This document shows, one piece after another, positions 21,697 to 24,545 of a stretch of 44,569 nt of DNA. Position 1 is the first letter of the stretch. Each line of letters begins with the position of its first letter. The translations under genes were made by a program, and so were the position numbers. Under the pieces are notes generated by a model that worked only from the letters and a program-made list of their open reading frames with translations, made no database searches and was not told the origin of the DNA. The stretch lies in sequence record OM632668.1, one strand, 5' to 3'. This DNA comes from Escherichia phage BEU35.

Positions 21697-23117
21697 TTCT
21701 TACCTCGTCTCTTCATGTAATTAAGCAACTCTTCCTGTACCGATTTCTTCTCGTCAGTACGTGTGGCAACAACCTCGTCCAGCGTGTCTTTAGCGACGAT
21801 GTGATAGAGGAACACCGGTCGCTCGTGCCCCGCTTGTTTCTGGCGGACCGGGCCTATACGCTCAACAACCTGCAAATAGTGCTCAAGGTTCCAGCCTTGC
21901 GAGATGAACGCCAGATGATGACCCCCGTCCTGTAAATTCAAACCATGCCCGGCTGACGCAGGATGCACGCATAAAATCTCGATTTCCCCACGGTTCCACG
22001 CTTCCATCTGCTTATTACCCTTCGCACCTTTGGCAAATGCCTGGGCCTGCGGGAATCGCTTAAGGATGCGCTCCAGTTCGTGCTTGAACTGATAGGCCAC
22101 CAGTAACGGCGCGCCCTGTAACTCTTCCACAATGGACTCCAGTGCGTCCAGTTTCGTGTCGTGCACTTTCTCCCAGTCTTTGGTTGCTTCGCCGTCAGGG
22201 CCCGAAACATACACGGCACCGGAGGCAATCTGCAGACACTTCGACGTCTTCGCCGCAGCGTTAGCCGCTTCAACTTCTCCGCTTTCCAGTTCCGCGAATA
22301 GCTTCTCCTCCATATCGATGTACGCCTGACGTGCTTTCTTCGGCAGGTCGATTTCAACCGGCACGATAACAGGCGCTTCACAACCGAACCACTCGGCGGC
22401 GTCAATCGTCAGACTGATGTCCTTCATCTTCTGGTGAATCTCGTTATCTGCACCAGGGCGGGCGTGATATTCACGTGCCATCGCAGATTTTCCTTTCTGT
22501 ACCGAATTAAACCAGCGGTCGGTGAATGCTGTATACGACGAACCTAGGCGCTCGCCAGCGTCGATAAACCAGTTCTGGCCCCACAAATCCTTGAGGCCGT
22601 TTGGTGACGGTGTACCAGTCAGGTTAATAAAACGCTTAACCCTTCCGAAAGCCACTTTACTAAGCGCCTTTGCACGCTTGCTACCACCTGAACGGCTGCG
22701 GAATGATTTAAGCTTCGTGCTTTCATCGGCAACGATAACAGTAAAAGGCCAGTCATCTTTGCCATAGTAGTCAATCAGCCACTCAATAACTTCGTAGTTC
22801 GTGCAAACCACGTTAGCATCTGACTCCAGCGCCGCGATGCGGCGCTTCTCTGAACCAGTCGCATCTACAACACGCAGACATGGGAATTGCCATTTCTCTT
22901 GCTCTGCAGGCCACGTACCAGACGCAACCCGCAGCGGGGCGAGGATTAACACGCGGTCGTCATCATTAAGTTGGCCGTTTCGGAACAGTCGGTTTAATGC
23001 CCACAGTACGCTGCCAGTCTTCCCAGCGCCCATGCTTGCCCATATGTTGCAGCGATGGTGCCGCAGCATGAACGAAGTCATGAGCTTTTGGTACTCACGC
23101 CTTTGAAACTTACTCAT
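21693..23117 (-). CDS. SNF2/DEAD-like superfamily-2 helicase
   Basis: Walker A GAGKTG, DEXH-like IVADESTK, LTGTPSPN, C-terminal helicase motifs. Confidence 0.8.
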   Translation of the reverse strand: MSKFQRREYQKLMTSFMLRHHRCNIWASMGAGKTGSVLWALNRLFRNGQLNDDDRVLILAPLRVASGTWPAEQEKWQFPCLRVVDATGSEKRRIAALESDANVVCTNYEVIEWLIDYYGKDDWPFTVIVADESTKLKSFRSRSGGSKRAKALSKVAFGRVKRFINLTGTPSPNGLKDLWGQNWFIDAGERLGSSYTAFTDRWFNSVQKGKSAMAREYHARPGADNEIHQKMKDISLTIDAAEWFGCEAPVIVPVEIDLPKKARQAYIDMEEKLFAELESGEVEAANAAAKTSKCLQIASGAVYVSGPDGEATKDWEKVHDTKLDALESIVEELQGAPLLVAYQFKHELERILKRFPQAQAFAKGAKGNKQMEAWNRGEIEILCVHPASAGHGLNLQDGGHHLAFISQGWNLEHYLQVVERIGPVRQKQAGHERPVFLYHIVAKDTLDEVVATRTDEKKSVQEELLNYMKRRGKK

Positions 23118-24039
23118 TTACCGCCCCCATGAATGCCTTTATAAATTCAGCAGCTACTTGCGGGACGATGGCATTGCCGTAACCGCGCAATCGTCCCACT
23201 CTGGCGGGTATCCCATCAGCCAGCGGGAATGTGCCGGGTTCAACTGGCCTGAATTTTCCATCCCGGCATCCGAGCCAGTCTGCCTCTGACCAGAAGCCGT
23301 GATGCGGATTGGTCGCGATATTTTCAGTCCCTGCTCCGTTGAGTAGTCCAGCCTGTCGAAAGTCCGGTCCTTTCCGTCCTTGCGAATCACTGTCTCTCCG
23401 CTCCCTCTGTAATCGTTCGCGGTCGGCGTCGCCCATGCCGTCATCGCGGCGGCCCACCCCAGTTTGTTCGGTTTCGTCCTGCCGTCTGTGCTGCGCATGT
23501 TCACGTCGTTTGTTATCAGTGATACTGCTGGCGTGGGCCAATCTATGCGCGCCGAAGAAAAGTCGGTCGCGTTTGTGCGGTGCGCCGACGCTACAAGCTG
23601 GGAGTACGGCAAACCCGACGGCGTAGTTTTCTCCTTCCAGGTGAGTTTGTAAATCGCACATCCACGATTTTGCAATTGCTGGCGCAACCTGCTCCCCAAA
23701 GAGGACTGGAGGGCGGCACTCGCTGATGAGGTCGAGGAACACAGGTGCGAGGTGTCTCGGGTCGAACTGTCCGAGTTGCTTTCCCGCTGCGCTAAACGGT
23801 TGGCAAGGCGGGCTTCCCGTCCAGAGAGGCGCATCTTCCGGAACTCCCGCAAGTCTGAGCGCGAGAGGCCAGCCGCCGATACCAGCGAAAAAATGACACT
23901 GGGTGAATCCGTCGAGGTCTTCTGGCTTAACTTCAGTAATGCTTCTTTCATCTACAACTCCAAAAGGTATGTGACCCTGTTTTATTAATTCACGCAGCCA
24001 CGCGGCTGCGCCTTTATCCCATTCGTTGTAATAGTTCAT
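23110..24039 (-). CDS. DNA (cytosine-5)-methyltransferase; central target-recognition part appears to be encoded in another frame (overlapping ORF 23154..23951)
   Basis: Motif I FAGIGG, motif IV PCQPFS, motif VIII-like PHKRDRLFFG, motif X GNAIVP in this frame; GYPPEW (GFPD-like) in the overlapping frame. Confidence 0.75.
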   Translation of the reverse strand: MNYYNEWDKGAAAWLRELIKQGHIPFGVVDERSITEVKPEDLDGFTQCHFFAGIGGWPLALRLAGVPEDAPLWTGSPPCQPFSAAGKQLGQFDPRHLAPVFLDLISECRPPVLFGEQVAPAIAKSWMCDLQTHLEGENYAVGFAVLPACSVGAPHKRDRLFFGAHRLAHASSITDNKRREHAQHRRQDETEQTGVGRRDDGMGDADRERLQRERRDSDSQGRKGPDFRQAGLLNGAGTENIATNPHHGFWSEADWLGCRDGKFRPVEPGTFPLADGIPARVGRLRGYGNAIVPQVAAEFIKAFMGAVNE

Positions 24040-24227
24040 TTTGCCACCAGAACTAACTCTTTACGCCCGAACGCCGTAACGTTACCGGTTACATCTTCGA
24101 TAACCAGTTTACCGTTCGACTCGACGTACACCGTATCAACGGCAACAGGCCGACGGGTCTTAACGTTGAAAATCATGTCGCCAGGTACGATGTCACGTGC
24201 TGGTTTGCGGTCATATTCGTGTTTCAT
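24036..24227 (-). CDS. small hypothetical protein
   Basis: First gene downstream of a strong sigma70-like promoter. Confidence 0.45.
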   Translation of the reverse strand: MKHEYDRKPARDIVPGDMIFNVKTRRPVAVDTVYVESNGKLVIEDVTGNVTAFGRKELVLVAK

Positions 24228-24257
24228 TTCTCAATTCCTTATATTGTTGGTGTAGGA

Positions 24258-24545
24258 CTAACTATAATAGTTCGCTATTAGGGCGTCAACCTGTTTAAAC
24301 GAACCAACGACAAAAACATTAGCACCACGCTTACGCATCCGCTCGTGCTCCCGTAACTGGTGTGGATCCGGCTTCGTGCTTTCGTCTTTCTTTATCTCGA
24401 CGAACCAGATGACGCCGCCGGGGAGAATTACCAGCAGGTCAGGGGCGCCGGAACGTCCTTCGTAGGAAAGTTTACGAACGAGGCCACCAATGGCCTCGAA
24501 TCGGTCTTTTGCGTATTTCTGTATTTTGCCCTCAGGCGTACTCAT
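24258..24545 (-). CDS. VRR-NUC domain nuclease-like protein (start at internal ATG)
   Basis: PDLLV ... VEIKK pattern of PD-(D/E)xK VRR-NUC proteins. Confidence 0.5.
   Translation of the reverse strand: MSTPEGKIQKYAKDRFEAIGGLVRKLSYEGRSGAPDLLVILPGGVIWFVEIKKDESTKPDPHQLREHERMRKRGANVFVVGSFKQVDALIANYYS
24261..24289 (-). promoter_or_regulatory. sigma70-like promoter (TTGACG-N17-TATAGT) for the leftward operon
   Basis: Read on minus strand: ttgacg ccctaatagcgaactat tatagt. Confidence 0.5.

Follow-up and report, generated by a model that had tools for sequence, protein, structure and literature searches.

In the 44,569-nucleotide stretch of Escherichia phage BEU35 DNA analyzed here (sequence record OM632668.1; hereafter the window), one segment of the minus strand probably encodes two separately translated chains of a heterodimeric cytosine-5 DNA methyltransferase (C5-MTase). 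The alpha gene, read in frame A, spans 23110..24039 and specifies 309 residues, and the beta gene, read in frame B, which is +1 relative to A, spans 23154..23951, specifies 265 residues and lies wholly inside the alpha gene; all positions are those of the whole window. The initial annotation of this DNA had described both open reading frames (ORFs), which exist as it described them, and had seen in them a single methyltransferase that seemed to require reading in frame A, then B, then A again, as a result of two sequencing indels, a genuine pseudogene or an unusual recoding. Its map of the meaningful frame stands; in place of the single recoded chain, the evidence favors two overlapping genes, an arrangement that it had not considered, and none of its three options fits the conserved layout, the selection on two frames, the upkeep of both ORFs and the separate initiation signals of beta. 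Alpha is annotated as a DNA cytosine-5 methyltransferase (RefSeq YP_009620114.1), and the PHROGs collection places the two proteins in separate families, phrog_363 for alpha and phrog_1008 for beta.

The conserved motifs are divided between the two frames, and those cited by the initial annotation were all located where it had put them. On the minus strand, frame A carries FFAGIGGW (motif I; 23869-23892), SPPCQPFS (23791-23814), APHKRDRLFF (motif VIII; 23554-23583) and RLRGYGNAIVPQVAAEFI (23140-23193), and frame B carries DWPTPAVS (23520-23543), AWATPTANDYRGSG (23397-23438) and QLNPAHSRWLMGYPPEWDD (23190-23246). The catalytic and S-adenosylmethionine (AdoMet) motifs I (FxGxG), IV (PCQ), VI (ENV-like) and VIII (QxRxR) are all within alpha, along which a motif II/III-like segment is followed by motifs I, IV, VI and VIII, an unconstrained linker and motif X. 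PF00145 matches alpha residues 68-186 only (62.6 bits, for a cut-off of 22), and hhalign aligns alpha with the M.HhaI family over residues 36-166, that is, motifs I and IV-VIII (E=2e-17); no C-terminal match to the M.HhaI family was found with alpha alone. In a typical C5-MTase, a target-recognition domain (TRD), motif IX and motif X follow motif VIII in one polypeptide. Here, motif X is in frame A, and the motif IX-like segment and a constrained variable region are in frame B.

Evidence that both frames are genes comes from the pattern of substitutions. Isolated substitutions in 306 sequence pairs of 70-97% nucleotide identity were classed by their effect in each frame, and rates were normalized by possible sites; A-silent substitutions are synonymous in A and non-synonymous in B, B-silent substitutions are the reverse, and codons are numbered as in A. 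Over codons 1-105, 151-165 and 286-309, A-silent rates of 0.23-0.55 face B-silent rates of 0.000-0.06, and only frame A is constrained. Over codons 166-240 the balance is reversed (A-silent 0.004-0.078, B-silent 0.10-0.235), and only frame B is constrained, the charged middle of alpha drifting neutrally. Over codons 106-150 and 241-285, both classes are depressed, and both frames are constrained. Constraint thus alternates along the gene in the order A only, both, A only, B only, both, A only: each frame is a spacer where the other is functional, except for the two dual-coded stretches of about 45 codons.

Taken from the 5′ end of alpha, all on the minus strand, the first segment (codons 1-105; 23725..24039) serves alpha only, beta residues 1 to about 75 being unconstrained there, with the ORF still open. 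The first dual-coded segment (codons 106-150; 23590..23724), in which the two single-frame-synonymous classes are depressed to 0.10-0.24 and 0.05-0.08, encodes the motif VI-VII region of alpha together with two elements of beta, a helix at residues 76-94 and a beta-hairpin at 101-123 (...IYKLTWKEKTTPSG...). Codons 151-165 (23545..23589), which hold motif VIII, are dominated by alpha (A-silent 0.324 vs. B-silent 0.014). Codons 166-240 (23320..23544) serve beta only and encode its WPTP / WATPTAND repeat region (beta residues about 137-211); read in frame A, they yield an Arg/Asp/Glu-rich linker that drifts freely yet is free of stops. The suspicion raised in the initial annotation that this middle of frame A was a wrong-frame read was well founded, in that it is unconstrained in A: the B-silent rate at codons 181-195 is 0.235, against an A-silent rate of 0.004. 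The second dual-coded segment (codons 241-285; 23185..23319) encodes GFWSEADWLGCRDGKFRPVEPGTFPLADGIPARVG in alpha and the motif IX-like RITASGQ..SGQLNPAHSRWLMGYPPEWDD in beta, and the last (codons 286-309; 23113..23184), with motif X (GYGNAIVPQVAAEFI), serves alpha only (A-silent 0.286 vs. B-silent 0.002 at codons 286-300), the beta tail CAVTAMPSSRK (stop 23154-23156) being unconstrained. The boundaries of constraint fall at 23544/23545 and 23184/23185, close to the frame switches first placed near 23540 and 23190. Sites that are synonymous in both frames evolve fast (0.44-0.70 over codons 121-150 and 0.53-0.74 over codons 256-285), and since this is so in most dual-coded windows, the constraint acts on two proteins and not on the RNA.

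Both ORFs are also selected to stay open, even where their amino acids drift freely. Relative to the number of stops expected from shuffles of synonymous codons in the other frame, frame A contains none over codons 166-255 in 57 loci (3.36 expected per locus), and none over the B-only segment in 64 loci of a bacterial genome set (2.0 expected per locus). Frame B contains a single stop over codons 36-165 in 58 viral loci (1.93 expected per locus) and two over its purely unconstrained part in 66 loci of the genome set (0.53 expected per locus). The +2 frame, used as a control, contains 4.90 stops against 4.99 expected. Beta has, furthermore, initiation signals of its own. A Shine-Dalgarno (SD) core GGAG (23958..23961, minus strand) lies 6 nt upstream of the beta ATG (23949-23951), which is built from the alpha codons for D30-E31 (gATGaa), and the GGAG-N6-ATG arrangement is conserved in loci of the type found in phage VB_EcoS-Golestan. 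Other lineages have instead AGGAG-N8-ATG, formed from a conserved Arg-Ser (AGG AGY) and Asp-Val (GAT GTC) of alpha, and the two layouts are mutually exclusive; AGG is used at that Arg codon in 23/58 loci, against 11.5% of the Arg codons elsewhere. A frame-B ATG occurs within the 50-nt start segment in 64 of 72 genome loci. Another candidate beta start, the ATG at 23745-23747 (beta residue 69), has a GGAG 9 nt upstream and would give a 197-residue product beginning MRLSGREARL; it is present in some close relatives and missing from others, and a shorter beta isoform may be initiated there.

These observations bear directly on the idea of a programmed double frameshift, in which ribosomes would begin in A, enter B by a +1 shift near 23540 and return by a -1 shift near 23190, and would thereby make a single canonical chain with motifs I-VIII, TRD, IX and X. 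The A-B-A selection map is what such a gene would display, the A-B-A product is colinear with motifs IX and X of HhaI, and a canonical single-chain architecture would be restored. However, neither a slippery X_XXY_YYZ heptamer nor a conserved +1 site was found at either junction, as the initial annotation had already remarked for slippery heptamers, and the junction sequences differ between lineages. A frameshift gene is recognized by a conserved shift site and by a 0 frame that ends, or becomes dispensable, downstream of it; here selection holds the 0 frame open beyond both junctions. Double frameshifting requires neither A to be open through the B-only segment nor B to be open through the A-only segment, and both are under selection to be so. 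Constraint on B starts near A codon 106, about 60 codons before the N-terminal part of A ends and overlapping motifs VI-VIII, and so lies out of reach of a shift near codon 166. The conserved SD and ATG of beta, and the precedent of M.EcoHK31I, which consists of two separate chains (PMC2836561), also speak against a double shift, which we regard as extremely unlikely. In another model, a single +1 shift yields a fusion of the N-terminal domain of alpha with the C-terminal part of beta, which would accompany or replace free beta. Motifs I-VIII would then be linked to the WPTP region and to motif IX, and frame B is open throughout. This model too lacks a shift site, its product would be without motif X, on which constraint in frame A is strong, and it leaves unexplained both the beta helix-hairpin over alpha motifs VI-VII and the beta SD and ATG; it is very improbable. 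Recoding of any kind is unnecessary, given that both ORFs are kept open, that beta has its own SD and ATG and that there is no slippery site.

The nested layout is conserved far beyond this phage. The nested pair recurs in the 131 loci that were read, which range from coliphages to prophages of many bacterial phyla; apart from a few interrupted ORFs, it is found in all 58 distinct loci from IMG/VR and phages, which span 43-100% identity in A, and in all 74 loci from bacterial genomes, with B always +1 of the frame that encodes PCQ. In the viral set, the +1 frame has no stop between A codon 18-35 or so and about the end of A in about 55 of the 58 loci; the +2 frame contains 9-33 stops. Searched by tblastn, the C-terminal 131 residues of B match sequences as distant as those of Pseudomonas phage Haboob, Vibrio phage Vaitephage, Salmonella phage epsilon15, coliphage N15 and the Seunavirus SalP219, and these distant matches are all +1 relative to the annotated methylase coding sequence; single-frame relatives were sought in phage records, IMG/VR and GTDB genomes, and none was found. 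A scan of GTDB, with one genome per species, yielded at least 515 loci. In the 74 of these that were analyzed, PCQ lies without exception (74/74) in the frame that is -1 to B, GNA[IV] is in the same frame as PCQ (A) in 71/74, and the A ORF is unbroken across the middle of the B match in 73/74. Their hosts comprise Enterobacterales, Pseudomonas, Burkholderiales, Alphaproteobacteria, Desulfovibrio, Verrucomicrobia, Planctomycetes and Bacteroidetes metagenome-assembled genomes, and the B family contains 10,028 clusters at 50% identity (E<=1e-3).

In a single sequence, the junk-like middle of A does resemble a wrong-frame read, as two compensating sequencing indels or a decaying gene would produce. 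This explanation is refuted by the comparative data, the same architecture recurring in 131 loci across phyla, and its probability is negligible. Sequencing indels are ruled out by independent isolates with identical sequence (100%), by a layout that is kept down to 43% alpha identity and by prophages of many phyla, and a pseudogene is ruled out by strong purifying selection in both frames. One locus departs from the layout in its own way: in the T4-like Krischvirus LF73P4 (L075; OZ035795.1, 70323-73394), an apparent 1-nt frame swap in mid-gene brings the N-terminal part of alpha to a stop and runs the N-terminal part of beta on into the alpha C-terminus, which reflects an error of assembly or else a naturally occurring variant.

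What beta contributes to the enzyme is suggested by its position and by its weak similarity to motif IX. When a conceptual A-B-A family alignment, composed of A(1-165)+B+A(283-end), was compared with the M.HhaI family by hhalign, an additional colinear match appeared, in which QLNPAHSRWLMGYPPEW of beta and then RLRGYGNAIVPQVA of alpha correspond to HhaI 270-311, i.e., motifs IX and X (P=0.006). This match agrees, as does the substitution analysis, with the A-B-A order first proposed. The beta profile alone has a sole match, that of the QLNPAHSRWLMGYPPEW segment to HhaI motif IX (E=0.14). Together these results are weak but directionally consistent with a DNA that keeps the ancestral colinear order of motifs I-VIII, variable region, IX and X, the variable region and IX now being read in the other frame. 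The stretch of beta that separates the hairpin from the C-terminal motif is highly variable in length and contains from one to some eight W-x-T-P-x-A-x-D repeats, which is what a region for target recognition would be expected to show. In the AlphaFold2 model of beta, residues 1-75 are disordered (predicted local distance difference test, pLDDT, about 41), and the helix at 76-94 and the beta-hairpin at 101-123 are confident (pLDDT 74-87); these confident elements coincide exactly with the first dual-coded segment.

Alternatively, beta could be a real protein with a role independent of the methylase, such as a regulator, an anti-defense factor or a DNA-binding protein, alpha being complete, if minimal, by itself and using its own C-terminal RPVEPGTFPLADGIP as motif IX. 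In keeping with this, neither beta nor its family alignment has a match in Pfam, NCBIfam, PADLOC or PDB by sequence and profile searches, the similarity to motif IX is weak, and alpha codons 241-285 are themselves constrained. However, beta is never found away from alpha, all 74 of the 74 genome loci being nested in the same register; the VIII-X interval of alpha, where a TRD is expected, evolves neutrally, and the constrained, length-variable region of beta lies exactly there; and the beta chain of M.EcoHK31I is needed for methylation (PMC2836561). We therefore consider an independent beta unlikely, and prefer a beta that works as the partner of alpha.

Two heterodimeric C5-MTases, M.EcoHK31I and M.EaeI, are known to be alike in being built of two chains. 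The alpha chain of M.EcoHK31I has 309 residues, the same length as the phage alpha, and its beta chain has 176, close to the roughly 180-residue constrained part of the phage beta. In M.EcoHK31I, which belongs to a type II restriction-modification (R-M) system of E. coli, the beta gene is wholly inside the alpha gene in another frame (PMC2836561), alpha contains motifs I-VIII and X, beta contains motif IX, and both chains are required (PMC2836561; PMC3404938). According to the same reports, beta arises from initiation within the gene, activity is lost when the start codons of beta are silently removed and is regained when beta is supplied in trans, and N-terminal deletions of beta weaken its association with alpha (PMC2836561; PMC3404938). 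The phage gene shares with M.EcoHK31I a beta gene lying entirely inside alpha in another frame and the division of motifs, the likeness of beta to motif IX being weak, and this same nesting and motif distribution place it with enzymes of the M.EcoHK31I kind. It differs in being an orphan in a replication module rather than half of an R-M pair, and in having a beta ORF of 265 residues with an unconstrained leader of about 75. M.AquI is also split, into a chain with motifs I-VIII and half the variable region, plus a chain with the other half and motifs IX-X, and together with the artificially split M.HhaI, M.BspRI and M.SssI it shows that a C5-MTase can work as two chains divided in the variable region (PMC3404938). 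The pieces of M.AquI are consecutive, whereas the phage pair is nested in another frame and has motifs IX and X on different chains.

With respect to canonical monomeric C5-MTases such as M.HhaI (PF00145), the phage locus retains alpha motifs I, IV, VI and VIII in alignment and a motif IX-like segment followed colinearly by X; it differs in that no single frame holds all motifs and in that a motif II/III-like segment precedes motif I. That segment (YYNEWDKGAAAW ... VDERSI) is in alpha residues 2-35 (23935-24036), ahead of motif I. By phmmer and hhalign, alpha 36-166 aligns with M.HhaI 3-172, with HhaI 33-70 skipped, and alpha 2-36 aligns separately with HhaI 36-71 (P about 0.005), which suggests that the N-terminal motifs are locally permuted in this methylase family.

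A second ORF within a phage methylase gene has another precedent in actinophages, in which hidden out-of-frame HNH endonuclease insertions (ShiLan domain) reside in DNA methylase genes and the host frame is kept open as a loop (PMC11855218). The two cases are alike in that a phage methylase gene contains a further ORF out of frame; ShiLan-domain HNHs differ in being sporadic mobile homing-endonuclease insertions and not a universally conserved partner chain. One metagenomic member of the beta family (P0216) has, in frame B, an insert of about 200 residues between the unconstrained leader and the helix-hairpin that is HNH-endonuclease-like by eye and recalls those insertions (PMC11855218). A translated second frame could explain how hidden out-of-frame HNHs are expressed. 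Two called frame-B proteins (P0137 and P0139) extend well beyond the beta domain into additional C-terminal sequence, which in P0139 resembles, by eye, a Dam-type N6-adenine methylase (NPPY motif).

From these elements we infer the following course of events, in which the separate translation of beta, the assembly of alpha with beta, the docking and DNA-recognition roles of beta and the use of the enzyme against restriction are all deduced. The mRNA of the replication module would be translated in frame A from 24039, coupled through an ATGA overlap to the upstream ORF, as its sequence indicates; ribosomes would also initiate at 23951 in frame B, as the SD, the ATG and the maintenance of the ORF suggest. 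Alpha would fold as a large catalytic, AdoMet-binding domain with a floppy linker in place of the small domain. By analogy with M.EcoHK31I and canonical C5-MTases, the helix-hairpin of beta would be the module that docks onto alpha, and the repeat region of beta, for target recognition, would form with QLNPAHSRWLMGYPPEW, the counterpart of motif IX, the DNA-recognition small domain. Orphan methylases of phages have an established role in evading host restriction, and the heterodimer would likewise methylate cytosines of the phage DNA and so protect it.

Several points weigh against this interpretation. In this phage, translation of beta and its interaction with alpha are predictions from sequence, and the likeness to M.EcoHK31I is one of published layout and motifs, which may reflect analogy or homology. 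The literature places the TRD of M.EcoHK31I in alpha; in the phage gene, the constrained variable region is in beta and the VIII-X interval of alpha is neutral. Statistical support for linking beta to motif IX is weak (pairwise P=0.006; hhalign probability 6%), and PF00145 scores the conceptual A-B-A product at 60.3 bits, against 62.6 for A alone, with no gain. No C-terminal part was matched by Pfam in A, in B or in the conceptual A-B-A product, and as neither A-B-A nor A-B improves the score, Pfam is uninformative for the C-terminal half of the family. The beta model is of low confidence outside residues 76-125 (mean pLDDT 55), a Foldseek comparison of it with PDB returned meaningless matches only, and the AlphaFold2 model of alpha has a pLDDT of 38, from a shallow alignment of sequences at least 73% identical. 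The unconstrained leader of about 75 residues, which puts the start of beta far from its functional part, is unexplained. Lastly, an ORF is broken in a few loci, A being truncated in L022 and L035, B containing a stop in L049, and the frames being swapped in L075.

The methylase gene pair is part of a replication module, in which a VRR-NUC gene, a small ORF, the methylase, an SNF2-type helicase and a primase follow one another, with no R-M pair. The alpha ATG overlaps the stop of an upstream 63-residue ORF as ATGA (24036-24039), and the ATG of the downstream helicase (23117) is 8 nt inside the end of alpha (23110-23117), so that the genes of the module appear tightly coupled translationally. 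The region 22900-24300 is 100% identical to Escherichia phage VB_EcoS-Golestan (Kagunavirus, Guernseyvirinae). Names given to beta elsewhere vary: in the K1ind phages, the B ORF was called a “putative Mte8-like protein” by Bull et al. and is a “DNA methyltransferase” in RefSeq. Searches of plasmids and E. coli genomes returned only “DNA cytosine methyltransferase” annotations, mostly in hosts of phage-plasmids such as Salmonella, Klebsiella and Citrobacter; the one E. coli match whose surroundings were inspected is located in a lambdoid prophage. In a lambdoid prophage of E. coli Ec1117 (L156, 3878-4478 and 4586-5047), the homologue was split by the Prokaryotic Genome Annotation Pipeline (PGAP) into two “incomplete” pseudogene fragments, probably because protein-based evidence misses the unconstrained middle of alpha. 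Peptides such as IDWPTPAVSLITNDVNMR and LGWAAAMTAWATPTANDYR are specific to beta.

What appeared to be a frameshift or a pseudogene is thus resolved as a real, selected dual-coding gene. The design itself was known from one enzyme; what is new here is its breadth, the interleaved constraint and the likely move of target recognition to the hidden frame. M.EcoHK31I, a curiosity of 1995, appears to be not a one-off but an example of how a huge family of methylases in phages and prophages is generally built. A broader proposal, which we regard as evenly poised between right and wrong, is that all “orphan Dcm-like” methylases of phages and prophages (at least 10,028 beta clusters at 50% identity, and at least 515 species-representative genomes of Proteobacteria, Desulfovibrio, Verrucomicrobia, Planctomycetes and Bacteroidetes) are obligately two-subunit enzymes whose target recognition resides in the variable W-x-T-P-x-A-x-D repeats of beta, and not in alpha as has been assumed for M.EcoHK31I, and of which one gene is systematically missed or mis-called by annotation pipelines. 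If this is true, the locus ranks among the most widespread and most ancient of the long gene overlaps on one strand that prokaryotic viruses contain; its constraint is interleaved, and two segments of about 45 codons are truly dual-coded.

The consequences reach from databases to phage therapy. Most records give alpha only; in some, beta appears as “Mte8-like” or “hypothetical,” and alpha can be broken up by PGAP into pseudogene fragments; prediction of specificity is affected as well, for the variable region that probably reads the DNA sequence sits in the unannotated frame. The family also offers evolutionary biology a large natural collection of long overlapping genes on one strand, in which the constraints on the two products are cleanly separable. 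For the biology of these phages and their use in therapy, the anti-restriction enzyme would be inactivated by mutations that seem silent in the annotated gene.

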